From positions 64,001-128,000 of IMG/VR virus record IMGVR_UViG_3300033146_003848: a stretch of 64,000 nucleotides of DNA; one strand, given 5' to 3'. Below the pieces are notes generated by a model. That model saw only the letters and a list, made by a program, of their open reading frames with translations. It searched no databases and was not told the origin of the DNA. Every line of letters starts with the position of its first letter. Positions within the stretch are counted from its first letter, which is position 1. The DNA comes from a virus. Below are positions 9,822-59,933 of this stretch, in pieces. The position numbers were made by a program, and so were the translations under genes.

Positions 9822-10133
9822 TGAGTTTACGAAAGATTTTGAGTAGATGGTTTAAAAAAGACTTCATTAGTCTAAAATGGGCATTTATTGACTTTAGATT
9901 GTGGGTTTTTGAATTGGAAGATAACAGTTCTGATCCTATTTGGATCGAAGAGTGCGATGTGGATATTAGATTTAAAAGTCATTATAAGGCTGTACCTTGG
10001 TATAAATGTATGTTTACATTTCGAATTCCATCACGAATTAGAAGTTATATATCTCATATAATATCGATTTTAGTGGGATTAATAGTGGGAATTGTTATAT
10101 CTGAAAATTATGAATTTTTAATGGAGGTATTTA

Positions 10134-18831: not shown

Positions 18832-18900
18832 TTTGACTTAGAGTGATATTTATGTTATATTATTATTGTGAAAACAATAACTTTTATAGAGGAAATCAAA

Positions 18901-30421: not shown

Positions 30422-30649
30422 ATGAAAAAAATAAAGATTTATGATGTAGAATATTGGGAAGATGATAATTATAATAGATGGTCTAATTGCACTAAACAAC
30501 AGGCTCAAGATATGTCCGACTCTTTATTGAATTGTTATAATTGCGAAAATTGTCAAATATGTACCAATTGTTCTTCTTGTGTATTTTGTTATAATTGTTT
30601 AAACTGCAATAACGCAATAAATGAAGTGAATGGCAGAGATATTGGATAA
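30422..30649 (+). CDS. Cys-rich (Cxx)n repeat protein, paralog 1
   Basis: YWEDDNYNRWSNCT...A...SL.NC followed by CxxC repeats. Confidence 0.75.
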   Translation: MKKIKIYDVEYWEDDNYNRWSNCTKQQAQDMSDSLLNCYNCENCQICTNCSSCVFCYNCLNCNNAINEVNGRDIG

Positions 30650-40961: not shown

Positions 40962-41582
40962 ATGGAAACTATACAAAAAATAAATTATAAGGATCATACG
41001 ATTGAAATTTCATATGATGATTATTTTGAAAGTCCAAGATGTTGGGATCAAAACTCAACAATGTTAATATTTCATCGAGAATATGATTTTGGTGATAAAA
41101 ATGAATTGGGTATTGATAAAAATGATTTTAATGATTGGGATGAAATGGAAGAATTCCTACAAAAGGAGATGAATATAGTAGTAATTTTACCAATTTACAT
41201 GATGGAACATAGTGGGATAAGTATTCAAACAACTCCATTTAGTTGCTCATGGGATTCAGGAAGAGTGGGATTTATATATATTACTCGGGATCAGATGAAG
41301 GATGCATATGGGTATAAACTATTAAATGCCAGACGAGAAAAAGAAATCATAAGATACTTAACCAACGAAGTCAAATTAATGAATAACTATGTCACAGGAG
41401 ATGTTTATGCATATTGTATTCGCAATGAGGACGACGAAGTACTCGATTCATGTTCAGGGTTTTATGGTGATGATTGTATTCCCGAAATAATAGATGAATG
41501 TAAACGAATCATTGATACTTATCCTTCTTCTCAACAAATGACTATTGCTGATTTTATACAGGAGAAAAAAGATGACCAATAA
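40962..41582 (+). CDS. Acidic conserved phage protein
   Basis: SPR.WD...LPIY..EHSGI.I...WDSG.VGFIY...DSCSGFYG. Confidence 0.6.
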   Translation: METIQKINYKDHTIEISYDDYFESPRCWDQNSTMLIFHREYDFGDKNELGIDKNDFNDWDEMEEFLQKEMNIVVILPIYMMEHSGISIQTTPFSCSWDSGRVGFIYITRDQMKDAYGYKLLNARREKEIIRYLTNEVKLMNNYVTGDVYAYCIRNEDDEVLDSCSGFYGDDCIPEIIDECKRIIDTYPSSQQMTIADFIQEKKDDQ

Positions 41583-42234
41583 AGAACTGATGGAACTGAT
41601 GGGAGTCTCAAGAGAGACCGTTAGATTCTGGATCACAAAGGGAATTCCACATGTGGGAGAAACTCCCACAACAATGACTTTCCCCGAAAAAGAATGTCAA
41701 CAATGGTTTATTGACAATAAAATAATAGGATACTTAAATGTGAAGGAGATAAAAGAAAAATATAACCTCTCACAAAAACAATTAACAGTTTGGCGAAATA
41801 ATGGATTGCCCGAAGAGTGGAGTCCAATTCGTAAAAAGAAGGCAATATATAACATTGTAAAATTAGAAACTTGGGTTGAAGAAACAAATGCCCTTTCTAT
41901 GTTTGATGAAGATCCTCGAATGAGCACTGCGGATATTTGTGAAATGTATAATGTAACTAGAGCGACAGTTTCTCTTTGGGTAAAAAATGGACTTCGAGGA
42001 GAAGATACTATTCATGGGTTTAGATTTGAACATAGTGAGGTTAGACGTTGGATAGAAAGTCACAAAAAATCCCAGAATAAATTAATTCTCATACAAGGTC
42101 AAGTATTCATTAGTAAACATAAAGATGTCGACCTTGTTGAACGATATTACTCCATAAGTGAATTGGGAAAAATACTATCTGAAAATAAAAATGATCCTAA
42201 AACCATTCAACATATTTCTAATATGTTAATTTGA
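41572..42234 (+). CDS. Triple winged-HTH (MerR/Nu1/Xis-like) DNA-binding protein, paralog 1
   Basis: Three repeats like KELMELMGVSRETVRFWITKGIP; AGGAG RBS. Confidence 0.75.
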   Translation: MTNKELMELMGVSRETVRFWITKGIPHVGETPTTMTFPEKECQQWFIDNKIIGYLNVKEIKEKYNLSQKQLTVWRNNGLPEEWSPIRKKKAIYNIVKLETWVEETNALSMFDEDPRMSTADICEMYNVTRATVSLWVKNGLRGEDTIHGFRFEHSEVRRWIESHKKSQNKLILIQGQVFISKHKDVDLVERYYSISELGKILSENKNDPKTIQHISNMLI

Positions 42235-43235
42235 CTTGGTCATTTTTATGTGTTATACTATATATATAAACAATTAATTTTGATTGTTTGTTTTTAATAA
42301 TTTTTTGAGTCAGAAAAGACTATAACATCGGAGACTATTATGAATTTACAAGTGAATGGTGAATTACATTTGAGAATTTCCAACATGGAAGGTGTAGAAA
42401 TTCAAAAAGATGAAGAAAAAATGGTTAGGTCGAAATTAAAGAGTGGAGATTATTTACTTAGCCTCAATAATAAATTTATTGTTGAATTAAAGAATTTTCA
42501 AACTCCAATATATACTTTTGATTTCGATGTCGATTCAATTACCGAATATGATTTCATTGAAGATGCGGAGGAAAATGATGAGTGATAAAAATACAAAAAA
42601 AGCCCTGTTGAAAGAACAATTGGACAAATTAATGAGCCAATTCTCAGATACAATTGATGAGAAGGTCAATCATGTGTTCGCATCGGGAACACTAGACGTG
42701 GACAATTTAGATGTCAGTGATGATAATTATACATTGGCTAAATTCTTCATGTGTGCATTAGGGAAAGAAATGTCGCACCAATATAAACATCCCAATTCTT
42801 CACGAAAACAAACCAAAACAATTGAGAGTATATATGGAGCAATGTGATGAAATATTTTGTAGCAATGTATTATGGCGAACGATATTTGACCACCATTAAG
42901 ACTATTAATGAGGAGAATTAAAATGAATATATTGCCAAAAACAATGTCGAGTAGTAACGAAGCCACAATGAGAATTAAAAAATTCCATCATCCCTTTATT
43001 CACGTCCAATTACATGAGGTAAAGGATAACAAAACAAATAAAAAGTATTCAATATTACAGTGGCAATATTGGACACATGGTGATAATATTAATGTGACTA
43101 GAGTCGCAATTAAGGATATCACTAGTGACGAGGCCATTTTACTTTGCGATGAATTGCCTGTTTTGACCGAGACCCTTCATGATGAAATTGCGGAGAAATT
43201 TACAATATTAAGTGTTCAATCATAGGAGAATTAAA

Positions 43236-43562
43236 ATGAGAAAAATAGTAACATGGGTTGACGATAATGGAAATTCTTGGTCAGACTGTACTGAGAGAGA
43301 GGCAATCAAGAAGTCTAAGACCCTTAGAAATTGCACTAATTGCAAAGATTGCACCTATTGTGTGAATTGCACAAATTGCACTAATTGTACTGAATGTGGG
43401 AATTTAGACGGTTGTGAACATTGTCACCAATGTGTGAATTGTAATAATTGTTTTCACTGTGATTATTGCACTGATTGCACCGACTGCAAAAATTGCACTA
43501 AATGTTTAGAGATTCGTGTTTCTAATGGTTCTAATTACGTTAACGTGAAACGAGGAGAATAA
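43236..43562 (+). CDS. Cys-rich (Cxx)n repeat protein, paralog 2
   Basis: WVDDNGNSWSDCTEREAIKKSKTLRNC followed by a long run of Cxx units. Confidence 0.8.
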   Translation: MRKIVTWVDDNGNSWSDCTEREAIKKSKTLRNCTNCKDCTYCVNCTNCTNCTECGNLDGCEHCHQCVNCNNCFHCDYCTDCTDCKNCTKCLEIRVSNGSNYVNVKRGE

Positions 43563-43933
43563 AATGATAGAAAAGAAAATTGCCCAATTTAGAGAAGAAT
43601 TGAAATTCGACACTAAAGGGTTAAAAATGTTTAATGATATCATCGAACACTCAAAGACCGATTCCAAATGTAATGCCTTATTTGAATTATACTTGACTTC
43701 ACCTGTTCATAAGACTTTAACCCTCTTTAAAATCCTCAGACTGACATTTCCAAATGAGGCAAAAGAAGACTCCTTGGAATTTACAAATAAATGGACATCA
43801 ATAGACTCCGCATCAAATGAAATTTCCATCAGAAATAATTGACATGGTCTAAAATAAATGTTATACTAGTATTATGATAGTATCAATAGTGACACTATCA
43901 ATTGATTATTAATTTAACACTATGGAGATCAAG

Positions 43934-44623
43934 ATGAATGGAAAGGAATTAATGCGAGGATATCATTGCACAAAGGCAACAGTCTTGATGTGGGTCTCAC
44001 ACGGTCTTCCACACGAAGGAGAAATATTCTCTAAAATGTCATTCGATGCCAATGAAGTAGAAAAATGGTTAATAGAGAATAAAGTCATGAATCATTGGAC
44101 AACCCAGGAATTAAAACAAAATTATAACCTCAAAAAAAGACAGTACGACGTTTGGAGAAGTCACGGACTCCCTGAACAAAAAAGTCCCCTGTTCCCAAAA
44201 AGTATGAGAGTATATAATATCCTCGAAGTAGAACAATGGGTGTTAGAGAATGATGCCCTAAATTTCCACGAATCAAAGTCGACAACCAACGATATATGTG
44301 CCCGATATAATATCACTAGAGCCGCAGTCTCACTATTCATCAAACAAGGACTCCCAAATGAAAAGACAATATATGGCCTCCGTTACGATATGAATGAAGT
44401 ACACAAATGGATGATTAAGAATAATAAAGTCAACGGGAAAAAGAATCGCAAAAAGAAAAGGCAATCAGAAACAAAAGAAGACCTCATCATCACACTAAAA
44501 GGCCTCAATAAGTGGAAAAGTGATTGGCAAAAAAGAGGTGTTGATGACTCCAATAAAATTCAATCGTTGAATAATTTAATTGAAGGTGTGAAAAAAGACT
44601 TAGAAAAATTCGATAAATGTTGA
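43934..44623 (+). CDS. Triple winged-HTH DNA-binding protein, paralog 2
   Basis: Collinear with 41572-42234 (W..GLP repeats, YNI..E.W, DIC..YN.TRA.VSL). Confidence 0.75.
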   Translation: MNGKELMRGYHCTKATVLMWVSHGLPHEGEIFSKMSFDANEVEKWLIENKVMNHWTTQELKQNYNLKKRQYDVWRSHGLPEQKSPLFPKSMRVYNILEVEQWVLENDALNFHESKSTTNDICARYNITRAAVSLFIKQGLPNEKTIYGLRYDMNEVHKWMIKNNKVNGKKNRKKKRQSETKEDLIITLKGLNKWKSDWQKRGVDDSNKIQSLNNLIEGVKKDLEKFDKC

Positions 44624-44715
44624 CTCGGTTGATATTATATGTTATAGTACTATTATAAAGTAAAAGTCAATAGTGACTTGTTAGAGTGATTAATTCATAC
44701 AAAGGAGAGACAACA

Positions 44716-45069
44716 ATGCAAAAAATTGTAACACAAAAAATGATATACTGGCAAGACGACAACGACAACAAGTGGTCAGACTGCACTGAAGAAGAAGCCA
44801 TTGAGAAGTCTAAGACCCTCAAAAATTGTACTAATTGTACCGACTGCGAACGATGTGAAGACTGCCATGATTGTGAGAATTGCACAGACTGCAGATGGTG
44901 TGTAGATAGTGCCAATGCGTCCTTTTGCGAAGACTGCACCGATTGCAACCATTGTTCAGGATGCGAATCTTGTATAAAGTGTAACAATTGCGAAGACTGC
45001 ATTGGTTGCGATGAATGTGAACAAAGTGAAGGTCTTGCGAATGAATATCAAAGTGTCGGAAAAGAATAA
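44716..45069 (+). CDS. Cys-rich (Cxx)n repeat protein, paralog 3
   Basis: YWQDDNDNKWSDCTEEEAIEKSKTLKNC followed by Cxx repeats. Confidence 0.8.
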   Translation: MQKIVTQKMIYWQDDNDNKWSDCTEEEAIEKSKTLKNCTNCTDCERCEDCHDCENCTDCRWCVDSANASFCEDCTDCNHCSGCESCIKCNNCEDCIGCDECEQSEGLANEYQSVGKE

Positions 45070-45256
45070 TGAAGAAACCAAAACAACGATGTCGAATGTT
45101 GAGTAGACAAAACCAAATAAATCCATATGCAACCCTTCAACGAAATGAAAGTGTGAGTAGTAAGTCACTCCCCCTCTATTATATCGTCAGCCCTCAAATG
45201 AAACCAATTAGTCGACGAAAACCCAACACCCCCGGTGTTAAACAAAGGAGAATATT

Positions 45257-45679
45257 ATGAACGCCCAAATAACCAATATAAAATTCTTCATACAAGGGAA
45301 TGCAATATTTACAGTATCAAACCCACAAAATGAACACTACACCTTTAAAGTGTCAAAAAAACCCAATGATGAAGACTCCCCACTATTCGTAGGATTATTA
45401 ACAGGACCCAATAATGAATATAATTACCAGTATATAGGAATACTAGACAAGTACCAATTAAAATTAACAAAAAAGTCCAATATAACACCATCATCAAAAG
45501 TCCTTAAAGTGTTCAATTGGACTTTAAAACAAGTGTACTTCAATAAAAGGCCTCCAAAAGGATACTCAATACAACATGTAGGTAAGTGTTGTAAGTGTGG
45601 AAGAACCCTAACAACACCAGAATCAATCGCCCTAGGAATAGGCCCTTCATGTAGAAAACAATCAAAGTCCTGGTCATAA
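45257..45679 (+). CDS. Protein with C-terminal DUF6011-like zinc finger
   Basis: CCKCGRTLTTPESIALGIGPSC. Confidence 0.7.
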   Translation: MNAQITNIKFFIQGNAIFTVSNPQNEHYTFKVSKKPNDEDSPLFVGLLTGPNNEYNYQYIGILDKYQLKLTKKSNITPSSKVLKVFNWTLKQVYFNKRPPKGYSIQHVGKCCKCGRTLTTPESIALGIGPSCRKQSKSWS

Positions 45680-45817
45680 AATTTACTGCATCCTATTCCC
45701 TCTTCATATTAGTCCATCCAAATAACCGCAACCCATCCAATGAAAATCACCATTTTTTGTCCGTCCAATGTCGAACCAATACGTGTGTTGTTGCGTGTAG
45801 ACAAATTAAACCGTCCG

Positions 45818-45876
45818 ACCATTACCAACCAATACCAACCAACCAATACCAACCAACCAATACCAACCAATACCAA
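45818..45876. repeat. ACCA/ATACCA short tandem repeat
   Basis: accattaccaaccaataccaaccaaccaataccaaccaaccaataccaaccaataccaa in non-coding DNA. Confidence 0.9.
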
Positions 45877-46406
45877 ATTATCCATTGTCGACTTATAAAA
45901 TATAGGGATCCTCAATTAATCATTTTCAATACTATTAATTGGTCCTCATTTTTTACCATAAGGACCTCCAATTTCTTATAATTTATAGGCGACTTTTGTT
46001 TGTTTTTTTGGTCTTCATCCTTTTTCCTTATATAAGGCGAATTACTTATATGGAATATTTGACAGGGTCATTTAATTATGATATACTATTAAAGTGAGTG
46101 AGACTTTTTGTTTTTTCAACACTCACCCTGGTTTCCCTTAACCGATAAAATTAAGGGACCCTGCGTACTTGTGATGATGGATCCTATTAGTGATTGCCTT
46201 GGGCGTGACGCGTTGAAGGTGACTTCGACTTTTAGGATCCTCACTTTAATGACAATTGTAAGGGCCAGTGCGAATAAAAATAAAAGTCATTTTATTTGAC
46301 TTGGTTGTTTTATTGTGTTATAATATGTATATAAACAATTGAAATTGATTGTTTGTGTTTTTAATACTTTTTTGAGTCAGAAAAGACTATAACATCGGAG
46401 ACTATT

Positions 46407-47057
46407 ATGAGTGAAGTAAAAAAAGAAATCGTTAATGGCAATGAGGCTCCAATTGTACACGGCATTGATTCATTAGAGGCTGAAATGAATGCGATGAACG
46501 GTATTCCTGTTGAGGTGTCTAAGAAGTCTATCAAATTAAAAGGGACTGCAAGGGTCGAGAGGCCTGTTCCTAGAGAGCCGAAGAAGAAATTGAAGATGGC
46601 TGCACATGCAAAATTTTTTAAGGCGAATGGTGGAAAGAAGAATGCGGATCAATTGAAAGTGAATTACAAAATGGTTGCAGAGTGGGTTCGTAGTATCATT
46701 GAAATTTACAACGTGAAGGATCACTTTGAAGTACATTGTAAGAGGAGTAAAAAGGACGTAAAGAACGTGGACTTCAATAAGGACGTTGCAGTGAGTAAAG
46801 AGAACCCTCGTACAGTGAAGAAAGAAGTGTATGCGGTTGTTTTTAATCGTAAAGAGGGTGATGAAGTGATTGAAGTACGCAAGGATCAATACAAGTCAGA
46901 AGAAATGTTGGTTAGGTCTCTCGCAAATATGGTGTACTTTGCGACTGCGAAAGTAAAAGAGTACGCGGCTGACCATAAAATTGAGCCACAATACGAGAAA
47001 AAAGTGGCTACTGAGGCTAAAACAGTGAAAGAGACTGTGTCCAACGAAAAGAAGTAA
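46407..47057 (+). CDS. Lys/Val/Glu-rich protein in a stand-alone transcription unit
   Basis: Promoter at 46296, conserved leader, GGAG RBS, terminator at 47075. Confidence 0.8.
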   Translation: MSEVKKEIVNGNEAPIVHGIDSLEAEMNAMNGIPVEVSKKSIKLKGTARVERPVPREPKKKLKMAAHAKFFKANGGKKNADQLKVNYKMVAEWVRSIIEIYNVKDHFEVHCKRSKKDVKNVDFNKDVAVSKENPRTVKKEVYAVVFNRKEGDEVIEVRKDQYKSEEMLVRSLANMVYFATAKVKEYAADHKIEPQYEKKVATEAKTVKETVSNEKK

Positions 47058-47074
47058 TCATTAGGACTATTATG

Positions 47075-47111
47075 AAGTGAGGACTTATTCAGTCCTCACT
47101 TTGGCTTTTTT
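47075..47111 (+). terminator. Rho-independent terminator
   Basis: aagtgaggact-tattc-agtcctcactt followed by T-rich sequence. Confidence 0.75.
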
Positions 47112-49482
47112 CGTATTGATTCCCTATTAGGACGGACTCCACTTAGGGAGGTAGGGTGTGGGACGAAGGCTCTCAATTAATATAGTGGAAATAGTGTATG
47201 CCCTTTTCATTAATGGGTATTAGTGGTTGACTTGTATGCAACGATAAAAAATTCTTAATAGTAAAGTGCAAGTGAAGTAATTTTTGTTCTTAAAGTCACA
47301 CTATCATATATTGTTGGTCATTATATTGATTCGCCGGTTCGTCTGTGTCGCGAAAGGGCACGTACTTAGTAGTATAGTATTGATGAATCCTGTGTTTTTA
47401 TGGGAACGAGTGCCGGTTTCCCTTAACCATCGAGGATCCTGGACTTATGGTCAATGGATATGCGTGTTTGCGAGGATTGGATCCATTTAGGACGGACTCC
47501 ACTTAGGACGGTCGAATTCGGGATAAAATTGGAAACCGGCACGGTTGAAATCATTAGAGAAAATCGTCACTAGGACTTGTTTATATTGGACTGATAGGAT
47601 TTGAGTGGACTTTTTCGTTTTCGCCTCGAGGTGATCCTATTTCTTGGGTTGGATGGTTGAATGGTTATGAGTACTTAGTGGTAACCGACTTTTTATTGAT
47701 TTGAGTCGGATTTGTATGGTGTTGCCGGTTGAAATCATTGACGGATTTCGTCACTACACAATTGGTTGGAATTTTCACTTTATTTGATGATTCCCATTCG
47801 TTCGAATTCGAAGTCTACGGCTTCGTTGAAGGATGACTTGTACAATTCATCAATTTGTTCTTGTAATATTGTCATTCTCAAGTGGGACCTTCCGATATCA
47901 CGGAGTTGCATGGTTCGTTCTTCATAGAACAATTCTTTTGTTTCGAAGTCTTCGGGTTGCATAATCCTTACTACTTCTGTGAGTACTTTTGCGGCCCTTT
48001 GGTTTCCGAAGTACTCTCTTTGGAGGTCTTCCATTTTTGTTTTGTCGTGGTGATTCATCATTTTACTTCCCTCATCATACTAAATTAATAATCAATTGAA
48101 AGTAACACTATTGATACTTTCATAATAATAGTATAACATATAATATCAACCGAGTCAACGTTATAATGAATTATTTTAAATTATTATTTTATTGACACGG
48201 TTGATATTATATGTTATTATTGACTCGTATTATTAATATTGATATTACAAACGATAACAACAAAAAGGAGACTTATTATGACTAATGCAGAAATTAAACA
48301 AGTACTTAATGAAAAAATGGAATTGATGGAACGCCACTACAAGAACAGACTTATTACCGAGGAAGTGTGGAAAGAAGTACTAATCATGGACAATTACTAT
48401 AAGAAAATTGTAAAGAATTACGCCTTCGCACTTCGTCAACGCCAAAAACAAATTGAAGAAACGTATGATCCTAGAAGTCGTAAGAAAAGTAATGAAATAT
48501 AGTAAATTATATAACGATTAATTCTAAAAGTCCACACTTAATTATCCCAGAAGTCAACGTCATATTTGGTATATTCATTTGACTATTAATTGTTTGATCG
48601 ATGGCTTCACTTAAGTCCTTTGTGTTTATGTTAATTGTTTTGTTTGATACCATCACTTTATCATTGACTTGGAAAGTCCTTTTGACTAATAGGCTAAATT
48701 GCATCCTTGATTCTCCCTGTTTCCTTGAATTGTAAGTACTTTTTAATATCATTGATGGTGATATGGTCAAGTATACCATAGGCATTCTTTGTATTCATTG
48801 TTCCGGACCCTTCAATTAACGTTGTTGTTGCCAACATTATTTGATTTAATTGGGTATCATTCATTTTATTTTGTTGCATAATTTCCTCCTTTTTAATATA
48901 TTAAGTGACCATTTTTAAGGCGATGAATAAATTCTTTCATTGCATTAGTGATGGTTTTTACTTCAATTTTTTCTGTCTCAGTCCATTCATCAGTAATATC
49001 CTTGATTAACAAGTCTACGTTTCCCTCTTCATCACTCAATTGGTGATAATATGCAAACAAGAATGACTTGGCATCATATGAGAATTTTGTGTCCCTTAAT
49101 TTCTTCAAGAAAGTCCTTTTAGTCGTTGTTGTTTTAAATAACATAATGACCTCCATTTTAAATTGTTCCCTTCACGTACTCAGTGAAGGAGAATGCAAAT
49201 ATTTCTGATTCATTGGCATCATCCAATGAATATACTTCTAGGCTTTCCAAGAAGTCAATCACTTCTTCTTCCCCATACTTTTCACCATACACTTCACAAA
49301 TGGAATCGGCAATACTTTCCAATTCATAAACCTCATTGACTTCCACACAGTGACAGTAATGTCCATTCCTTTCCTCAAGTACTTCTTCGAAAATCATATT
49401 CATTTTATTCTCCTTCAAATTGTTATTCTCATCATAATGCAAGGATCATTCCACTATTGAAATGACCCTTCGTTGTTGTACC

Positions 49483-49641
49483 CTAATTATACTTTCTGAC
49501 CATTTCTTCGATGATCATTTTAATCGTCCTTGTTTCCTCTTCAGACTCCTTTGTCTTGGTGATGATTGCAAAGTGGCTTAATTTATCATACTCGTCTAAT
49601 GAGTATGCGACTTTGTGGTTTTGAATCGTTGTTGTTAACAT
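49483..49641 (-). CDS. Small protein (52 aa; not in the ORF track)
   Basis: MLTTTIQNHKVAYS..., GGAGG RBS, promoter at 49736. Confidence 0.6.
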   Translation of the reverse strand: MLTTTIQNHKVAYSLDEYDKLSHFAIITKTKESEEETRTIKMIIEEMVRKYN

Positions 49642-49966
49642 GATAGCCTCCGTTTTAAGTAATCAATAATCAATTGATAGTAACACTATTGTTACTATCA
49701 TAATACTAGTATAACATATAATATCAACCAAGTCAATTACTTTTGTTGATATACTCTAAAAAATTAATTGACACTTGCCCATATTGAATGTCGCAGACTC
49801 CGTCTCCTATTAACGCCTCTCTGTGATACTTGTCGACTACTTCACCATCATGCCTCACTATTTGGTTAATAAATTCATTTTCTGCGGCATCCCTATCGTG
49901 AAAGTCAAACACGAATTGGTCATTCACTTGATTTTTATACGTTACGGTTACAACAATTACTTTCAT

Positions 49967-50062
49967 CATAAGTCTCCTTTCTTCTAAATTAATAATCAAT
50001 TGAAAGTAACACTATTGATACTTTCATAATACTAGTATAACATATAATATTAGCCAAGTCAA
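49967..50062 (-). repeat. ~95 bp promoter-hairpin-RBS module, identical to 50400-50495
   Basis: TTGACTTGG...TGTTATACT, ATAG-loop hairpin, AGGAG, ATG. Confidence 0.93.
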
Positions 50063-50399
50063 TTAATTTATGTTTGAAGTAAAAAAATTCAAATAAGTGT
50101 TACTTTTCTTTGATTGTTTTTGATTGTCTGGGACTTGATTTTTGAGTAATATTGAAGTACTTTACTTTATGTTATTGATACTTTTCGAAAATAGGAAGTG
50201 AGACTTCATTACCGTGTATTACACTATCATCATAATTCAAGGAGTCCGAATACACTTTGTTATTAATAAGGGCCATTCTTCGTCGTCGGTTCTTTTCCAT
50301 ATTAATGATGAAATTATTTCCCCTCACTTTCCATTCATCATTGGTTAACCTCATTTGATTCACCAATATCATCAAGTCTTTTCTTTTAGGCATTACCAT

Positions 50400-50495
50400 C
50401 ATAAGTCTCCTTTCTTCTAAATTAATAATCAATTGAAAGTAACACTATTGATACTTTCATAATACTAGTATAACATATAATATTAGCCAAGTCAA
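50400..50495 (-). repeat. Second copy of the ~95 bp module
   Basis: Identical by eye; drives an unrelated ORF. Confidence 0.93.
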
Positions 50496-50579
50496 CGTTA
50501 TATGAAAGTATTTTTTGATGATCGGTTAGGTACCTAACCAATGGAGAGGGCCCAAGTAGGACGGTTGAAAGTCACCTCA

Positions 50580-50611
50580 GAAACCGGCACTCTGTGACGA
50601 GTGCCGGTTTC
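50580..50611. other. Perfect 13 bp GC-rich inverted repeat
   Basis: gaaaccggcactc-tgtgac-gagtgccggtttc; the arms recur at 47410 and 47531. Confidence 0.85.
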
Positions 50612-50893
50612 CCTATCCCGTTATATACTCAATTCCATGGCTCTCACAATGACACTTTTGACTAGAGTCGTTCGCCTCATATATGTCATCACCACTCACT
50701 TCTACTGAGTCAGTGGACTTATAATAGTATATGTAATTAGCCTTCATTGTCGCACTCTCCCAATTCCACTTATTAATAATGGTCAGGAAGTCTTCTACTT
50801 TAAAACACCACACTTTTTGTTCTAACCCTCGATTATAGTAAGTGAATTCCCTATAATTACATAAGTACATTGCATCTGCCTTTGATATTAACA

Positions 50894-51286
50894 TTAGTGT
50901 CTCCCATGTCGTCTGTTATCAAGCCTCATTTGTTCCGTTTTTAATATTACTTTATTCATTAACCATACAGGAATTGTTAGTATTCCACCCAATATCACGT
51001 TGAAGGTTGACGTAAACAAAAACAAATTGAACCAAGGAATTTCAAAGAAAGGAGTATGATAGTGTGTTCCAACAATTAAAACGCCAAAGTATGCCGCAGA
51101 AAACGTTCCTGAAATAATATAGGGCAATGGTCCTGCAATAAGTATTATTATCATTGCCCAAAGTCCCATATATATATTCCAATCGTCTAATGGAATACCA
51201 CTAAATGCACCTGTTGATAAGTACACGTATGGTCCCAAAATTATTAATATTGCAATTAGTCGCCATTTGATAAAGTCCCACATCAC
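50894..51286 (-). CDS. Multi-pass membrane protein
   Basis: About four hydrophobic segments. Confidence 0.65.
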   Translation of the reverse strand: MMWDFIKWRLIAILIILGPYVYLSTGAFSGIPLDDWNIYMGLWAMIIILIAGPLPYIISGTFSAAYFGVLIVGTHYHTPFFEIPWFNLFLFTSTFNVILGGILTIPVWLMNKVILKTEQMRLDNRRHGRH

Positions 51287-51887
51287 TTTCTCCGTTTTCT
51301 AATTGGAGGTCGTTTTTTGAATAAGTCTAGTAAAGTCTTTTTGCGTGGCCTATTTCTCATAATATTCTCCTTTTATGTAAGTCGTCCTTATTGAATTTAA
51401 TAATTCTACCTCCGACTTTCTGATGTCGGTAGTGAATTTCTTCATTAAGGAGAACCAAGTCTTCCATAGTGTGATTTTTTGCCTGTAATACTTTTTCGAT
51501 TGCCTCGTGCAAGTCGTCTGTATTGACTTGCACTATTTCACAGGTTTCCAATAAGTCGTATTGTTTTTTAATTTCCAATTCAATCATAATATTCCCATGC
51601 CTTTTAATTCACACTTGATTTTCGCAGGTACTTCAGAGAGTGATACTTTGGTTTCCATCACTTTCCAATAAGTGCAACGACCATACTCATACATTTCTCT
51701 CATAGTCTCGTCTGCCTCTTCTTGATTGTTGTAATAGCCGATTCCAATGATTCCAATTAAGGCGATAAGTAATACTTTCTTCATAATAGTCTCCGATTTT
51801 AAAGTCTTCTCTGACTTAAAAATTAATAAAACAAACAATCAATATCGATTGTTTATATATATAGTATAACATATAAAAGTAGCCAAG

Positions 51888-52241
51888 TCAATTAATTATT
51901 GAGAATTGTGATGATGGTGTCGCATTATCAATACCATTCTCATTCAAACAATTTGAACAATCAGAACACTCTTGGCAATTATCACAATTTAAACACCATT
52001 GACAATACGAAAGGCTCGTGCAATCGGTACAGTCATATGAATATGATACATTTTTACAATTGATGAGCCTTGTCGAGTAATAACAATGGTGACTTCTTGT
52101 GCAGTCAGTGCAATTGGTGCAATCAGTACAATTGTCTAATGAAGAAGACTTCTTAATTGCCTCTTCTTCAGTGCAGTCTGACCATTTGTTGTTGTTCTCG
52201 TCTTGCCAATATTCCACGTGGTTCAATATTACTTTTTTCAT
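51888..52241 (-). CDS. Cys-rich repeat protein, paralog 4
   Basis: YWQDENNNKWSDCTEEEAIKKSSSLDNC; AGGAG RBS before ATG 52241. Confidence 0.8.
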   Translation of the reverse strand: MKKVILNHVEYWQDENNNKWSDCTEEEAIKKSSSLDNCTDCTNCTDCTRSHHCYYSTRLINCKNVSYSYDCTDCTSLSYCQWCLNCDNCQECSDCSNCLNENGIDNATPSSQFSIIN

Positions 52242-53087
52242 TTTATTCTCCTTTTGTTGTTCGTACTTCATACTTCCCATTTGATGAGAAGTGATTGGCA
52301 ATACTTTCCACCACTTCGTCTTCTGTGTTACCAATTGCCCAAGAGTCTAAGTCCTTCACGTATGCCCAATATTCACCGTCTCTAAAAACAGTATCGACAC
52401 TGAATCTTTCAAACACATACTTCGCATTTTTCACAAGGACTTCAAAATTAATTCTCATAATAGTCTCCGATTTTAAAGTCTTTACTGACTTAACAATTAA
52501 TAAAACAAACAATCAATATCGATTGTTTATAATACTACTATAACATTTAAATGAAACCATGTCAAGACTTTTTAATATCATTTTATCATTATTTTACCCT
52601 CATTGAAACCATTGCAATTTCATTTCAAGTCAATATGGAACCTTGTATCAATAAACAAGTGAGGACTTCAGTAATAATGAAATGAATTGAACCGGTGTTG
52701 ATTCTGAGTCAAAATGATATCACTAATACTTTACTATTCAAAAATTGTTTTCGTTGCAAATATCATAAAAGGATCACTTGAAAATGAAATAGGATGAAAT
52801 GAATTGAAAGTGAAACAAAATGAAGTAGGGTTAATTAAAGTGAGACTGAAGTGGAGGGAATTTGTATTTGATACTGATTGACTTCGGTTGGTAATATTTC
52901 AATTGCAACCTCGTTAGGGTTTAACCGTCCCGATTGATATGATACCTCAATATTGAATTTAATTAGGTGGAATCCAAGTATGAACCCTAAATGAGGATGG
53001 TTACCAAAAAGGACGGTACAGTGTAAATTGAAAATAAACCCTTAATTTTTTTAAGTGTCCATCGTTGATATTATTATTACTACTTCC

Positions 53088-53360
53088 TTAAATTGTTTCT
53101 AAGTCAAATTTAAGTGAAGTAGTGTTTTTTATATATTCATAAAATTTATACGACCCTGTTGATAGTAGAGACGATATTAATGATGATGATATTTCAATAT
53201 TACTTGTATCAATTAAAAACATGAATAATTGATACTCTTCTGTCTCGGTCAAATCAGTATCAGACTGAGCCAAAATCATGAGGGTTTGGGTAAGTGTGGA
53301 ATTGATAAAAAGTGATCTGAAGTCTTTTTCTGATACTTTACAATCGTTTATAATAATCAT
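53088..53360 (-). CDS. Cassette gene, paralog of 55184-55585
   Basis: EY.LF..LID and SYKFYEY.K....LKFD..TI shared. Confidence 0.75.
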   Translation of the reverse strand: MIIINDCKVSEKDFRSLFINSTLTQTLMILAQSDTDLTETEEYQLFMFLIDTSNIEISSSLISSLLSTGSYKFYEYIKNTTSLKFDLETI

Positions 53361-53663
53361 TTTCTTTTCCTGTTTTTAAAGTCTCTACTGACTAAAAAAT
53401 TAATAAGAACACAAACAATTAATATCAATTGTTTATAATACTAGTATAACACTTAAATGAGACCTTGTCAATTCCATTTCAAATTAATTTTATAAAAAAA
53501 AAGAAATATACTTACTTCAAATAGTCTCATATTCAATCGAGATCAAACGATATGGAAAAATGAATAGTAAAGTATATACTTGAAATAAAAAATGATTATT
53601 ATCAAAACACAATAGGTCTCAATGTTATTTTATTCAATCAATACCTTCCCTAATTTATATCGT

Positions 53664-53870
53664 CCATTTAGGACGGTTCCCAACCATAATAGGTCGTCAC
53701 TAAAGTAAAATTGAACCTCGATGAGAATTAATGATTCCCAAATAGGACGGTACAGAGACATTGACCTCGATAGGTCGTCACTAAAGTAAAATTGAACCTC
53801 GATGAGAATTAATGATTCCCAAATAGGACGGTACAGAGACGATTCGACCTCGATAGGGAATAGTATTATA
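53664..53870. repeat. Repeat block of the same family (two ~81 bp units)
   Basis: ataggtcgtcactaaagtaaaattgaacctcgatgagaattaatgattcccaaataggacggtacagagac occurs twice. Confidence 0.9.
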
Positions 53871-53875
53871 TAAAA

Positions 53876-53904
53876 AAAAGTAGTTGCTATTCGCAACTAC
53901 TTTT
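53876..53904 (-). terminator. Cassette terminator (potentially bidirectional)
   Basis: aaaagtagttgc-tattc-gcaactactttt; identical at 55137, 56342 and 57433. Confidence 0.88.
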
Positions 53905-53914
53905 TATCAAATAT

Positions 53915-54373
53915 CTAACGCTTCACAAGTTCTGCAATATTTTCTAGTTTTGAAAAATGTGACATCTCATCAAAATGTATATTCAATAGTGAGTTTGTGA
54001 TTAATAAAGCAATCTCTAAAGCATTTTGTTCCAGATCATCAAAATGATTTAGAATAAAATTTAAATCATCAAAACTTTCATATTCCAATGCTAGTTTTAA
54101 TTCTTGAATTCGAAATTTAAAATCTCTTTTTCCCAGTTCCTCTGCTTCGTCGGCAATTCCCGCAACATCAATTATATGAAAAAGAAATATTGCTTTTTCT
54201 TCAATTGAATATTCATGTTTTCTTGAGTCAATAAAAGCAAGCGTAAAATCAAAATCTTTTGTATACTCATCTATAGCATACAGTCTCTCTAATTCAGTAT
54301 CAAATTGTTTTTCAAAAGCAATGTGAAACAATTCATGATCAATTTCTTTTCCGAACACATTAATTTTTTTCAT
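53915..54373 (-). CDS. Acidic cassette gene, paralog of 57483-57953
   Basis: N.F...I...LFH..F...D, LFH..D..GI, LA.EY shared; start set by the conserved leader. Confidence 0.75.
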   Translation of the reverse strand: MKKINVFGKEIDHELFHIAFEKQFDTELERLYAIDEYTKDFDFTLAFIDSRKHEYSIEEKAIFLFHIIDVAGIADEAEELGKRDFKFRIQELKLALEYESFDDLNFILNHFDDLEQNALEIALLITNSLLNIHFDEMSHFSKLENIAELVKR

Positions 54374-54960
54374 GATAATTTTCCTGTTTTTAAAGTCTGT
54401 ACTGACTAAAAAGTTTAAAAACACAAACAAGCAATATCGATTGTTTATAAGTAACTATAACATAAAATAATTCCCGTGTCAATTCTATTTCAAATTATTT
54501 TAAATTAAAATTATTTTAAAGTAAAAATATTTTAAAAATAATAAAATGATATAATAATAAACAAAATAAACTTACTTCAAATAGTTCCATATTCAATCGA
54601 GATCAAACGATATGGAAAAATGAATAGTAAACTATATACTTAAAAAAAATCAATTATCATAACGAAAAAATAAAATAAAATTTGTCAATTTTATTCATTA
54701 AAATTAAAAAAAATAATTATAAATAATTATAAAATCACAATAGGCTTCTATATTATTTTATTAGATCGATACCTTCCCTAAATTTATAATTGAATTAAAA
54801 AAATGATTCATTTTGTTTCAATAATTATTTAAATCAATTCACTAAAGGGAATTTCCATCTTGCATTCGACCGTCCTATTCGGGAATTATATGTTCATATA
54901 GGTTTAAATCCATTTAGGACGGTTCCCAACCACGATAGGTCGTCATTTAAGTAAAATTGA

Positions 54961-55115
54961 ACCTCGATGAGAATTAATGATTCCCAAATAGGACGGTACA
55001 GAGACATTGACCTCGATGAGAAATAATGATTCCCAAATAGGACGGTACAGAGACATTGACCTCGATGAGAAATAATGATTCCCAAATAGGACGGTACAGA
55101 GACATTGACCTCGAT
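54961..55115. repeat. 3 x 49 bp tandem repeat
   Basis: acctcgatgagaa(t/a)taatgattcccaaataggacggtacagagacattg starting at 54961, 55010 and 55059. Confidence 0.95.
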
Positions 55116-55136
55116 AGGGAATAATATTATATAAAA

Positions 55137-55165
55137 AAAAGTAGTTGCTATTCGCAACTACTTTT
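55137..55165 (-). terminator. Cassette terminator copy
   Basis: Identical hairpin downstream of the gene. Confidence 0.88.
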
Positions 55166-55183
55166 ATCAAATATCTTTCAAAT

Positions 55184-55585
55184 TTATGAAAATTGCAAGA
55201 TTTCTTCTTTTGTTAAATCACTATTATTTAACATTTCAACTAAAATATTTTTATTTAATGTTTTTTTATCAAAATGAATTTGAATAGTTTTTTTATCAAA
55301 TTTCAAACAACTAATTTTTTTCATATACTCATAAAATTTATATGAAGTTTGTAGTAAATTCGCTAGAAGTTCCATTGCAATTTTTTTATTTTCAATATCA
55401 ATATTAGTATCATTATTAAGTTCCTCAAACGCTCTTTTATGCATATCAATTAATGATTTAAATAAATCATACTCTTGATCTTCATTTAATCTAGTTTTTG
55501 ATTTTGCTAAAAAAAGTACACTATCACTTAAAGTTGCATCAAAAATTTGTTCAAATTCATACGATGTTAATTTAATTTTTTTCAT
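55184..55585 (-). CDS. Cassette gene, paralog of 53088-53360
   Basis: Starts after the leader caggaaaattatcATG. Confidence 0.75.
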   Translation of the reverse strand: MKKIKLTSYEFEQIFDATLSDSVLFLAKSKTRLNEDQEYDLFKSLIDMHKRAFEELNNDTNIDIENKKIAMELLANLLQTSYKFYEYMKKISCLKFDKKTIQIHFDKKTLNKNILVEMLNNSDLTKEEILQFS

Positions 55586-56140
55586 GATAATTTTCCTGTT
55601 TTTAAAGTCTGTACTGACAAAATTAATAAAAAAACAAACAATCAATATCGATTGTTTATAAGTAACTATAACACATAAATTTTCCCGTGTCAATTCTATT
55701 TTAAATTAATTTAAATTAAAACTATTTTAATTCTATTCTATTATATTATATTATATTCTATTTTAAAACAATTAAAATGGAAATTGTTTTACTTTCATTT
55801 TAATGATACTTCAAATAGTTCCATATTCAATCGAGATCAAACGATATTCAAAAACTAATAGTAAAGGAAAGACTTGAAAAAATCAATTGACATAACGAAA
55901 AAATAAAATAAAATTTGTCAATTTTATTCCTTAAAATTAAAAAAAAATAACTATAAAATAATTTTAAAATCACAATAGGCTTCTATATTATTTTATTAGA
56001 TCGATACCTTCCCTAATTTAAACTCACTTAAAAAATGATTCATCTTGTTTCAATAAGTATCAACATAAATCAGTCGAGGGAATTTCCATCTTGCATTCGA
56101 CCGTCCTATTCGGGAATTATATGTTCATATAGGTTTGACT

Positions 56141-56335
56141 CCATCTAGGACGGCTCCCAACCACGATAGGTCGTCACTAAAGTAAAATCAAACCGTGATG
56201 ATAAATATAATTCCCAAATAGGACGGTTCCCAACCACGATAGGTCGTCACTAAAGTAAAATCAAACCATGATGATAAATATAATTCCCAAATAGGACGGT
56301 ACAGAGACATTGACCTCGATAGGGAATAGTATTAT
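56141..56335. repeat. Repeat block of the same family (two ~73 bp units)
   Basis: taggacgg.tcccaaccacgataggtcgtcactaaagtaaaatcaaacc.tgatgataaatataattcccaaa occurs twice. Confidence 0.9.
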
Positions 56336-56341
56336 ATAAAA

Positions 56342-56370
56342 AAAAGTAGTTGCTATTCGCAACTACTTTT
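56342..56370 (-). terminator. Cassette terminator copy
   Basis: Identical hairpin. Confidence 0.88.
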
Positions 56371-56386
56371 TGTCAAAATCTTGAAA

Positions 56387-56725
56387 TTAAAAATCAAAAT
56401 TCTCTTTGATTATAAGTTTAAATTCGTCAATGTTTCTATCATCATCATATGAAAATTGAAACTTTACTTTTGTAAGATCAAAATCATCATCATTAACTAT
56501 TATTTCATATGATTCTACTTTCAAAGAATCTAAAGTTATCATATGAAAATTTTTGAGACACTGAAAATAAATAAAATTTCTGATAATTTCTGAATTTAGA
56601 TCAATTTCAGAAATTATCATTTCCTCAATATCATTTTTATGATAATCTCTGCAAGCGTTATTTTCTGATAACGCGAATTGGGAAATGAAATTGAAATACA
56701 TTGTAACAGTTGTTGATTTTTTCAT
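56387..56725 (-). CDS. Acidic cassette gene
   Basis: Same leader; MKKSTT start shared with 57953. Confidence 0.7.
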   Translation of the reverse strand: MKKSTTVTMYFNFISQFALSENNACRDYHKNDIEEMIISEIDLNSEIIRNFIYFQCLKNFHMITLDSLKVESYEIIVNDDDFDLTKVKFQFSYDDDRNIDEFKLIIKENFDF

Positions 56726-57432
56726 GATAATTTTCCTGTTTTTAAAGTCTCTACTGACTAAAAAGTTTAAAAAAAACAAACAATCAATATCGATTGTTTA
56801 TAAGTAACTATAACACATAAATTTTCCCGTGTCAATTCTATTTTAAATTAATTTAAATTAAAACTGTTTTAATTCTATTTTATTTTATTCCATTTTAAAA
56901 CAATTAAAATGGAAACTGTTTTACTTTCATTTTAATGATACTTAAATAGTTCCATATTCAATCGAGATCAAACGATATAGAAAAATGAATAGTAAACTAT
57001 ATACTTAAAAAAATCAATTATCATAACAAAAAAATAAAAATAAAATTGTCAATTTTATTTTAATATTTGATATTTAAAATCAAAAAAATCTATTATATAT
57101 ACTATCGGGAATATATATATATTCAAAAAAAAAATCAAAAATTAAGTGAGATAAAATCAAAAAAAATCAAAACAAAAATACTTCTAAGTTTTCAAAAACA
57201 ATGTAGACATATCGGGAATTTCTTTGCGAAATGATACCCGCCCTCATTTCAATTAATGAAAATCAACCCTATCCTATTTCAAAAAAATATGAAACAAAAT
57301 CGGGAAGGTACCTGCCCTATAATATCTAAATACTCCCGAATAGGACGGTACAAAGTGAAAGTGAAAGAGAAAGCCAGATTTTCATTTTGAAGTCAATTCC
57401 GTTGTCAAAAAATTGACACTAGGAATACGATA

Positions 57433-57461
57433 AAAAGTAGTTGCTATTCGCAACTACTTTT
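57433..57461 (-). terminator. Cassette terminator copy
   Basis: Identical hairpin. Confidence 0.88.
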
Positions 57462-57482
57462 TGTCAAAATCTTGGAATTATA

Positions 57483-57953
<471 letters not shown>

Positions 57954-58039
57954 GATAATTTTCCTGTTTTTAAAGTCTATACTGACTATTAGTTTTAAAA
58001 AGAAACTGTTTTAAACTATTTTAAAACAGTTTAAAAAAC

Positions 58040-58069
58040 AACTTGCAAGACTTTGAAGTCTTGCAAGTT
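58040..58069 (-). terminator. Long hairpin after 58080-58799
   Basis: aacttgcaagactt-tg-aagtcttgcaagtt; T-rich downstream on the minus strand. Confidence 0.65.
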
Positions 58070-58079
58070 TCAAGTAATT

Positions 58080-58799
58080 CTATAGTTGCACTATAGAATT
58101 ACTTCGATTAAGCAAGATCATTATGTCGTTTACTCTTGATGTTGCATTTTTTCCTTTTCTTATCTTAGTGTATAAGACATTTTTAAGAGTTCGGAACGCA
58201 AAAGAATTTGCATTATTTTTCTGATTTTTAGCAAAGTTATGAATTATAACAATACTATTTTTCGATAAATTTGCAACTGAAAAAATTCCAGATTCAGAAA
58301 GTGTAAATTTCAGATTCATATTGTTTGTTTTTATAATGTCTTGACTTTCTGCTAAAATTTCACTTTTCATAACTGAAGCAATAAGTATAGTACTTGCATA
58401 AACATAATTTAAGCACTTTTCTTTATAATTCAATAAATTTGCAGTTTTTTCGACTTTAAACTTTTTTCCATTTTGCATCGTGATAACTAATTTTCCAGTG
58501 ATAAAATCTGAATTATTTTTTATATCATGTTTTGTGCAAAATTTTTCCGACATAAAGTACTTTTCAAAATTCTTTACTGCATACAGTGACTTGAAACTTA
58601 AATTTTCTAAAAGTTTATATCGTTTTGTAGAATTCAAATTATCAAAAAATTGAGAAACTTTTTTCTTTTCAAGTTCAACTTCTTTGATTTTTTCGTCATT
58701 TTTTTTTTCAGTTTCTAAATTTGCAAGATAACTTGTTCTTTCTTTATCTGACAAATTAAGATTAAAATTGTTGTTTGATTTTTCTGTTAAATTTTTCAT
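58080..58799 (-). CDS. Basic Lys/Asn-rich protein, first gene of the leftward array
   Basis: 239 aa; promoter at 58936 and a variant leader. Confidence 0.7.
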   Translation of the reverse strand: MKNLTEKSNNNFNLNLSDKERTSYLANLETEKKNDEKIKEVELEKKKVSQFFDNLNSTKRYKLLENLSFKSLYAVKNFEKYFMSEKFCTKHDIKNNSDFITGKLVITMQNGKKFKVEKTANLLNYKEKCLNYVYASTILIASVMKSEILAESQDIIKTNNMNLKFTLSESGIFSVANLSKNSIVIIHNFAKNQKNNANSFAFRTLKNVLYTKIRKGKNATSRVNDIMILLNRSNSIVQL

Positions 58800-59477
58800 A
58801 AAATTTTCCTAATTTTTAAGTCTTATTTTGACTAAAATGTTTAAAAAAAACTGTATAACGATATTGTTATACAGTCAAGTAATTAAAAGAGCGTTGTTTC
58901 TTATAAAATAATAGCATATAATTTCCATTTAGTCAATTATTTTTTGCAATTTTTTTAAACTGTTTTGTAAGTAATTAAAATTACTACAAAATAAAATCAC
59001 TTTTATTTTTAATAAAATCAATTAAAAATAAATAAAAATGTCTTTTTTTAAAAAAAAACTAAATTTTAAATTTTAAAATAGAGAAAAAAATACTCTTTTT
59101 ATTTTTCTCACGACTAGAACTTGCAATATGAAACTATTGCTATTCGCAAGTATTCTGAAAAATTAAAAAATCTATTTCTGAAAAAAATCAATAAATAAAT
59201 TTTTCTGTAAAATTGCAACGCAAGCAAGTCAAATTTTAATTTTCTGAAAAAAGTAATATAAAACTATTAAAAAATGAAAAAGTTTCTTAAAATCAAATTT
59301 TGTTCGTTTTTGGAAAAGACAAAAAAAGACAAAAAAATTCATTTTTTCAAAAATTAAAACATCTTGTTTTTTTTCAAATTTCTTGAATTGTTTCAAAATT
59401 GATACAAAACTGTATTTTTTCGCTTTTTATATATAGACGAACTATTGACTTAATTTTTTTGAACGGTTACCAGGCGA

Positions 59478-59662
59478 CTGATGGATCTCATCCAGGATCC
59501 AGGGAATATTTTGGCTGATGGATCTCATCCAGGATCCAGGGAATATTTTGGCTGATGGATCTCATCCAGGATCCAGGGAATATTTTAACTGATGGATCTC
59601 ATCCAGGATCCAGGGAATATTTTAACTGATGGATCTCATCCAGGATCCAGGGAATATTTTGG
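59478..59662. repeat. 5 x 37 bp tandem repeat
   Basis: ctgatggatctcatccaggatccagggaatatttt(gg/aa) at 59478, 59515, 59552, 59589 and 59626. Confidence 0.97.
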
Positions 59663-59933
59663 CTCAGGATGTCGGAATATTTCGGAGGTGTTCGGAACGT
59701 GATGGAACTTCGTGGATTTTAATGGGAACCTGGGAAATTTTTTTAGGAAGGAGACTTTTTATTGAAATAATAATTGACTTTTGAATAATTAAGTGTTATA
59801 TTGATTTTGTAAGCGAGATAAAAATTAAACGAGAGAAGTGAAATGATGAGATTAAATGAAACTGGAGGAGTTGTATTAGACACGTCTGGCATGAAAATCT
59901 CAATCAGCGAAGATGGTCGAGGATATACTATTA

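Follow-up and report, generated by a model that had tools for sequence, protein, structure and literature searches.

Zone A, as we call positions 42865-53881 of the DNA window analyzed here, has been cleared by selection of four-base words that differ by one letter from the palindrome AGCT. The window is a 64,000-nt stretch (positions 64,001 to 128,000) of the 146,140-bp IMG/VR virus contig IMGVR_UViG_3300033146_003848, and coordinates are window positions unless marked as genome positions. Zone A spans 11,017 bp; with zone B (53906-59440) it belongs to what we call the early block (42.9-59.4 kb). The purge is an extreme case of regional site avoidance, with features beyond any current model. 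We tentatively favor the reading, possible rather than probable, that zone A lies exposed, probably as first-entering or terminal DNA, while a nuclease of relaxed AGCT-type specificity is active.

Word Loss in Zone A

How complete is the loss? Between 42900 and 53870, AGCT, AGCA/TGCT, and AGCG/CGCT are missing altogether, AGTT/AACT occurs once (at 47904), and AGAT/ATCT occurs 12 times, whereas the neighboring classes AGCC/GGCT (30 occurrences) and AGGT/ACCT (43) are retained. The original prediction, made from the letters alone, had listed no AGCT, AGCA, or AGCG, the same lone AGTT, and about ten AGAT, and exact counting agrees with it. The depleted classes are common in the flanks, at 5.95 per kb for AGCA/TGCT, 1.63 for AGCG/CGCT, 12.6 for AGTT/AACT, and 12.3 for AGAT/ATCT; pooled, they number 13 in zone A vs. 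358 expected from flank density, AGAT/ATCT being reduced ~ten-fold (~90%). The composition of zone A itself, taken at zero order, predicts 70 AGCA, 36 AGCG, 134 AGTT, and 134 AGAT, complements included. AGCT is absent from the entire record, where ~198 copies are expected. GATC is halved in zone A, but this is not a separate signal, as its overlap with AGAT/ATCT fully accounts for it. The further claim that AGCC and AGGT persist is true of AGCC/GGCT, which in zone A coding DNA is if anything raised (23 seen vs. 15 expected), but AGGT/ACCT stands there at only about half of its expectation (22 vs. 47).

Could amino-acid or codon composition account for the gap? We took 22 credible zone A genes (7.3 kb of coding DNA) and either shuffled their synonymous codons (500 shuffles) or re-encoded them with the codon usage of the flanks. 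Shuffling gave 29 AGCA, 13 AGCG, 62 AGTT, and 64 AGAT, with minima over all shuffles of 18, 4, 43, and 41, and the two nulls together range over 29-34, 12-13, 62-87, and 64-82; the genes themselves contain 0, 0, 1, and 11. These counts are far outside the nulls, and composition at the amino-acid or codon level is therefore not the cause. The gap extends to the 3.8 kb of noncoding zone A, which holds a single depleted word (vs. 12 in coding DNA), in line with the expectation that noncoding DNA and coding DNA on both strands would be affected. In a gap scan of all 2- to 5-mers across the 146,140-bp record, these words came out on top (log10 P of -21 to -28), and no second region with such a word gap was found. 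The depletion thus stands up to the codon-shuffled nulls and the whole-record word scan that had been proposed as its check, and it is unique in 146 kb.

Rightward (42.9-47.1 kb) and leftward (47.8-53.4 kb) genes alike have lost both words of each complementary pair. Because the loss is independent of gene orientation, the target is double-stranded DNA and not mRNA; an RNA-level cause, such as an mRNA-cutting toxin or a RegB-like RNase, was rejected on this ground. The 13 surviving words lie toward the edges of zone A (P = 0.016). In a related strain from one metagenome (~88-95% identical), 37 substitutions produced 1 avoided word vs. 3.9 expected (P = 0.056). Overall, the purge of zone A is due to selection.

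Scaffold Copies and Borders

The early cassettes provide an internal control, as their scaffold of spacer, promoter, and leader occurs in homologous copies inside and outside zone A (Table 1). In the scaffold alignment, 4 columns hold avoided words in the zone A copy vs. 26-32 in the three outside copies. Among the changes in the zone A copy are AACT to GACT and ATCT to ATTG, and the -10 boxes read TATACT within zone A and TATAGT followed by T outside it. The zone A copy is also ~1.7x more diverged at columns without avoided words and is thus not simply a cleaned recent duplicate.

How sharply is zone A bounded? The final AGCA before it lies at 42861, and words are back at 53882-53919. The right border is abrupt, with all word classes returning within 40 bp, in or just behind the hairpin at 53875-53905. 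However, a 220-bp repeat block inside this edge lacks the words in every copy, so that the border is resolved to 53660-53881; the stretch of this block common to both sides is 109 nt long and 96% identical. A sharp end at the terminator near 53880 had been predicted, and words do resume at the hairpin, but the border is fixed no more closely than that interval. On the left, the transition is graded, with AGTT/AACT ending near 41967 (1 found vs. 10.9 expected, P = 2e-4) and AGAT thinning out over 42.7-45 kb.

The Phage and Its Relatives

The record is a linear metagenome fragment, ~65% complete, from an uncultured sediment phage. Its replication genes are of T4 type (a family B polymerase, topoisomerase II subunits, and an SbcC-like protein), and the phage is a distant T4-like myovirus. 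No capsid or terminase gene was found on the record, which covers 65% of the genome. The nearest phages in GenBank are Campylobacter phages, with a sheath identity of 33%, and the sole relatives found are two contigs of 14-19 kb with a polymerase identity of 55-57%. The open reading frame for the family B DNA polymerase (genome positions 17502-19460) encodes 652 aa, compared with 899-912 aa in the two relatives, and is possibly part of a split or interrupted gene. The tail sheath protein (genome region 132263-144395) has 1,294 aa, of which only the last 470 residues resemble known sheaths, and behind the sheath gene lie four HNH "homing endonuclease-like" paralogs of ~460-540 aa.

Zone A has few counterparts in public data. 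A megablast search of zone A against 50,697 phage records gave no match, no close IMG/VR relatives were found for two zone A proteins and the DNA polymerase, and a 233-aa zone A protein matched only itself among 5.8 billion proteins. The cassette terminator sequence was not found among viral contigs. A 19-mer from the repeat block had only two matches, in unrelated metagenome contigs of 48% G+C, which we put down to chance. Contig pieces identical to parts of zone A occur in three sediment metagenomes from three studies, and the sequence is thus no artefact of one assembly; public runs with the phage have a depth of 2-4 and contigs of 150-300 bp, and at this depth they revealed neither termini nor a step in coverage nor a contig across either border.

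Palindrome Avoidance and Zone B

How does zone A treat other palindromes? AGCT and GCGC are absent from the record, and GGCC, GTAC, and CGCG stand at 0.14-0.26 of expectation. The two relatives likewise avoid AGCT, GCGC, GGCC, GTAC, and CGCG, while AGTT, AGCA, and AGAT are normal there. This suggests a conserved cause of palindrome avoidance, either a host clade rich in restriction-modification systems (e.g., Campylobacterota) or enzymes of the phage family. When expectations are computed from the density in the rest of the genome, zone A is strikingly rich in such words: GGCC occurs 11 times vs. 0.7 expected, GTAC 38 vs. 8, CCGG 9 vs. 2, CGCG 3 vs. 0.8, and ACGT 24 vs. 11. These five palindromes are at approximately their compositional expectation in zone A and at 0.14-0.4 of it in the rest. 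In zone B, GTAC is also at expectation (12 vs. 11.5), and its avoidance is back beyond 59.4 kb. Thus, the whole early block is set apart from the bulk of the genome, with zone A as a sub-zone.

Zone B follows a rule of its own. Its gene bodies use GG/CC solely as GGAA/TTCC (e.g., all 21 GG in 57399-59312), with 2 GGT/ACC vs. 44 expected, 0 GGAT vs. 17, and 0 ACGT vs. 8.6; AGGT/ACCT, a neighbor kept by zone A, occurs 2 times vs. 17 expected. GG-rich repeat blocks with TAGGACGG and ATAGGTCG lie between the zone B cassettes. One idea is that GG/CC, as the protospacer-adjacent motif of a type I-F CRISPR (clustered regularly interspaced short palindromic repeats) system, could have caused this rule.

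The vocabularies can be set side by side. AGCT and GCGC are missing from both the bulk and zone A; the bulk in addition strongly avoids GTAC, GGCC, and CGCG, and zone A has lost the AGCT neighbors without GG/CC; zone B has GG only before AA, and hence the two neighbors kept by zone A are removed as well. The chromosome might be zoned in this way because successive parts of its DNA meet different relaxed-specificity nucleases or marks, made by the phage in a staged takeover, although we consider this rather unlikely. Were it true, self-immunity would be written purely in sequence, zone by zone, offering a natural answer to the question, raised for T5, of how a phage shreds host DNA yet spares the DNA that it has injected.

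Possible Exposure of Zone A to a Relaxed AGCT Reader

What kind of agent reads these words? Three features point to a dimeric AGCT-reading protein of relaxed specificity: word loss is graded around a palindrome, it affects both strands equally, and AGCT is missing genome-wide. Such a reader, acting on double-stranded DNA, is well supported by the word pattern. The original prediction had proposed a relaxed AGCT reader, and the selective, strand-symmetric, graded purge and the complete absence of AGCT from the record argue in its favor. Other specificities were tried and rejected: CviJI-type RGCY or relaxed RGCN, AID-like WRC hotspots, and T4 primase sites (GTT/GCT) predict either the loss of AGCC/GGCC, which are kept, or the retention of words that are lost.

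Under the reading that we favor, selection would strip zone A of every word that a relaxed dimeric AGCT enzyme still attacks, with the cognate AGCT being lethal anywhere and the near-cognate words harmful solely in zone A. That near-cognate words count in one block only argues that this block alone is exposed at peak activity. At the time of full enzyme activity, zone A would be without protection in the cell, as first-entering or terminal DNA could be, comparable to the first-step-transfer segment of T5 or the leading region of T7-like phages, which is internalized slowly. The rest of the chromosome would arrive, or gain protection, only after the activity has been shut down or blocked. The enzyme would be a host-DNA shredder carried or induced by the phage, or a host nuclease activated by infection, rather than a resident restriction enzyme; since a resident enzyme of relaxed specificity would cut unmethylated near-cognate sites of its own, a phage-borne or infection-activated nuclease appears more likely. 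We infer that the agent is a nuclease, as we do its owner and the role of the time or order of exposure in setting the zone. The abrupt right border, the fading left border, and the placement of the survivors at the edges would fit a fixed end and an exposure that falls with distance or time.

Such a reading would have wider implications. Selection has rewritten approximately 350 four-base sites in 11 kb, promoter -10 boxes and noncoding scaffolds included, and the result is a graded "specificity footprint" that predicts the cognate of an unseen enzyme (AGCT), the substitutions that it tolerates, and the DNA that it met. Zone A would represent sequence-encoded self-immunity, which has been proposed but never shown for T5, if the phage itself supplies the enzyme as a nuclease that shreds host DNA. 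The exemption of zone A from the family-wide palindrome avoidance and the zone B rule further suggest that scanning uncultured phages for word gaps could reveal the order of DNA entry, the windows of exposure, and the specificities of the enzymes involved.

Several findings weigh against an exposed, first-entering zone A. The record, linear and 65% complete, runs through zone A into unique DNA on both sides. Replication is encoded by genes of T4 type, and phages of this type package DNA by the headful and have no fixed ends. A search for genes of AGCT-type nucleases or methylases, which the original prediction had put forward as a check, found none in zone A or elsewhere on the record. Zone B has equally strong host-type promoters, yet its density of the words is normal, and the terminal repeats of T5 and SPO1 show no comparable purge. 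Finally, GTAC, GGCC, CCGG, and CGCG are at expectation in zone A and avoided in the rest and in the relatives, although DNA that was simply the most exposed, or the first to be met, should avoid them most.

Alternative Explanations

Is zone A native to this genome? It might be a mosaic piece, 11 kb acquired by recombination or chimeric assembly from a related lineage already cleared of the words, with the borders as joints. Two independent differences, the loss of near-cognate words and the missing family-wide avoidance of GTAC, GGCC, CCGG, and CGCG, would be explained at once; G+C differs (34% vs. 30% in the rest), both borders are intergenic, the right one falls within repeated cassettes, in which crossover or mis-assembly would be easy, and the ~1.7x greater divergence of the zone A scaffold at word-free columns points the same way. 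We nevertheless consider a mosaic origin unlikely. The avoidance of AGCT and GCGC is common to zone A and the rest, paralogs of zone A genes lie just outside it, and the cassettes inside and outside have promoters, leaders, and a 96%-identical block in common. With the purged words, GCGC, and GGCC left out, the tetranucleotide signature of zone A correlates with that of the rest at r = 0.41, compared with r = 0.55-0.83 for native 11-kb windows; however, the same windows fall to 0.35-0.51 after an artificial purge. Thus, the purge alone may account for the deviation of zone A, and its background composition appears native-like, although zone A and the rest differ in their avoidance of GGCC, GTAC, and CCGG. 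Nor does a left border graded word by word look like a single joint. A mosaic origin would merely move the question to the donor: donor-like DNA was not found in the phage-record, IMG/VR, and protein searches, and we know of no case of genome-wide AGTT/AACT loss.

The agent might also be something other than a nuclease. If the words were relaxed targets of a modifying enzyme of the phage or of a DNA-binding protein (a silencer or roadblock), a zone free of the mark or binder could secure immediate transcription by the host polymerase or escape a modification-dependent nuclease. A strand-symmetric, graded purge fits any dimeric DNA reader and not a nuclease alone, the phage encodes two N6-adenine methyltransferases of unassigned specificity, and GG/CC is contained in both exempt neighbors, with zone B dropping GG except in GGAA, as if under a second mark. 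We judge this quite unlikely, as zone B is as strongly promoted and keeps the words, the genome-wide absence of AGCT implies lethality rather than regulation, and the record, which covers 65% of the genome, yielded neither a C5 nor an AGCT-type methylase. Genes for base hypermodification (TGT/DpdA or thymidylate-synthase-like) were looked for on the record and none was found, a lone QueC match being a 61-residue N-terminal one. Lethal selection would be unnecessary if sites were eroded instead, with a nuclease that acts from a point in zone A, near its own gene or loaded in cis, cutting nearby near-cognate sites that are then repaired from site-free co-infecting genomes by biased gene conversion, as happens around the free-standing homing endonucleases of T4-like phages. 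The survivors lie toward the edges, and the center (46.6-50.9 kb) is clean except for one AGTT; the right border ends at a repeat block and hairpin, the left one fades, and T4-like recombination genes and several HNH endonuclease-like paralogs are encoded by the phage. But the edge bias is weak (P = 0.016), no nuclease gene was recognized at the center of zone A with PHROG, Pfam, and NCBIfam, and the sites of homing endonucleases are long and few. To our knowledge there is no case in which ~350 four-base sites have been eroded, and we regard this process as very improbable here.

Gene Content of the Early Block

Zone A is best explained, from its layout, as a delimited block of immediate-early ("host-takeover") genes: it consists of small genes in converging rightward and leftward sets, most of them behind a strong predicted host-type promoter of their own (Table 1). 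At least 15 predicted promoters match TTGACA-N17-TATAnT at 10-11 of 12 positions, mostly with an extended -10.

Table 1. Features in and around the early block (window positions)
Feature	Position	Strand	Remarks
Graded left margin	41967-42864		AGTT/AACT gone; AGAT and two AGCA present; rightward early promoter 42231
Zone A	42865-53881		AGCA/TGCT and AGCG/CGCT cleared; AGTT/AACT one left (47904); AGAT/ATCT ~90% cleared
Rightward early genes	42908-47103	+	sigma-70-type promoters 43839, 44620, 46059, 46296; terminator 47073-47103
Central G+C-rich noncoding stretch	47104-47779		gene sets converge here
Leftward small-gene cassettes	47780-53471	-	promoters 53471, 52565, 51891, 50495, 50062, 49736, 48158
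Cassette scaffold copy inside zone A	53400-53662	-	homologous to 54410-54860, 55620-56090, 56760-57230
Repeat block with TAGGACGG and ATAGGTCG motifs	53663-53874		96% identical to 54909-55017; avoided words absent from all copies
Two-way terminator hairpin	53875-53905		AGTT, TGCT, AACT reappear; switch between sequence regimes
Zone B early cassettes	53906-59440	-	normal AGCT neighbors
Six tandem 37-bp repeats	59440-59701		right close of early block; GTAC and GGCC avoidance resumes beyond

The rightward set includes two Cys-rich CxxC-repeat paralogs, a protein with three helix-turn-helix (HTH) motifs, a DUF6011 protein, and a 216-aa orphan. The function of this central orphan could not be read from a single-sequence AlphaFold model (pLDDT 54), Atlas (no usable match), or NCBIfam (nothing). 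The three-HTH protein shares 41% identity with the neighbor to its left outside the zone, and the two paralogs (41545-42234 and 43922-44623) straddle the left border; the inner one contains three HTH-like repeats and weakly matches the HTH domains of terminase small subunits. Both are candidate binders of the TAGGACGG repeat blocks. A small Cys-rich protein (phrog_15341) occurs as four paralogs (43212-43562, 44686-45069, 51888-52334, and 30446-30622), with repeated C-x-x-C triplets and a DNA periodicity of 9 nt.

The zone A cassettes lack the strong identical terminator that closes each cassette outside zone A. A 99-nt promoter module occurs four times (48060-48158, 49638-49736, 49964-50062, and 50397-50495), twice in identical form. 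Closely downstream of its -10 box, the module has an operator-like palindrome, TTGAAAGTAACACTATTGATACTTTCA. Two copies of a 37-mer containing TAGGACGG are found in the central stretch (47127-47163 and 47487-47523). This stretch and a second G+C-rich noncoding region at 45680-46400 (both 37-40% G+C) have a GGTTTCCCTTAACC motif in common, and the second region also contains the promoter at 46059 and a ACCAACCAAT tandem repeat (45810-45876). Such G+C-rich stretches may encode small RNAs; transfer RNA and known RNA genes were considered, and no tRNA or Rfam match was found. In the 37-bp array, which might consist of iterons or act as an injection-stop-like array, each of the four best-conserved copies carries one GGATCC.

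Comparison with Known Systems

How does zone A compare with DNA that is known to enter first? In T5, EcoRI and CRISPR have access to the first-step-transfer DNA alone, and this DNA is naturally without EcoRI sites (10.1101/866236; 10.64898/2026.04.02.716235). Host DNA is destroyed in T5 infection at a time when only the pre-early DNA has entered the cell. Davison proposed that a host-degrading function of T5 cuts sites missing from this DNA (10.1101/866236), and how T5 DNA escapes A1 is still open (10.64898/2026.04.02.716235). Zone A resembles the pre-early region of T5 and BF23 in its ~10 kb of early genes, host-type promoters, and repeat-rich noncoding close, but T5 genes diverge from a central promoter region, whereas those of zone A converge. 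When the ten largest zone A proteins were scanned with PHROG and Pfam, none was named as a T5 pre-early protein such as A1, A2, or Dmp, with no direct T5 comparison made, and the single metallophosphatase on the record is far from zone A, 2.5 kb from the SbcC-like gene. When the T5 left terminal repeat (1-10219) is set against 10220-50000, AGAG/CTCT occurs 19 times vs. 66 expected and GAAC/GTTC 33 vs. 75, which makes the repeat 3.5-fold and 2.3-fold poorer in these words than the next 40 kb. GAAC/GTTC is a Dnd phosphorothioation motif. The longer word GAACC/GGTTC occurs there once vs. 18.6 expected. Unlike in zone A, no short word is fully purged from the T5 repeat, AGAG/CTCT being its strongest case.

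A second likeness is to SPO1, whose 13.2-kb terminal redundancy contains the host-takeover module, a set of strongly promoted early genes. In both phages, small rightward and leftward genes converge midway in a block of 11-13 kb. SPO1 host-takeover proteins were not named in PHROG and Pfam scans of zone A, with no direct comparison to gp37-60 made. In contrast to zone A, no 3- to 5-mer is purged from the SPO1 redundancy; SPO1 DNA carries hydroxymethyluracil. With moderate depletions in T5 and none in SPO1, the purge of zone A goes far beyond the textbook cases.

Chlorella viruses use frequent-cutting, degenerate nucleases against host DNA (CviJI, which cuts RGCY and has a relaxed form, and Nt.CviPII, which cuts CCD), and their "all but one base" degeneracy resembles AGCD. 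However, these viruses rely on methylation rather than regional avoidance for self-protection, and the RGCY and RGCN sets include AGCC and GGCC, both kept in zone A. The classical genome-wide avoidance of palindromes fits AGCT and GCGC in this phage, but not the zone A words, which are nonpalindromic near-cognates confined to 11 kb.

A further parallel comes from the Autographiviridae, in which restriction motifs matter only within the leading region (PMC12455610): the position of a motif and not its copy number decides sensitivity, and motifs elsewhere are harmless. There, however, the motif is a single Type I motif with a handful of sites, and here it is five related four-base words and ~350 sites. 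The original prediction had stated that regional avoidance of this kind was undescribed; this holds for families of near-cognate words, but regional avoidance of cognate sites is known (10.1101/866236; PMC12455610). In those earlier cases of regional restriction-site avoidance, in T5 and T7-like phages, few cognate sites only are involved.

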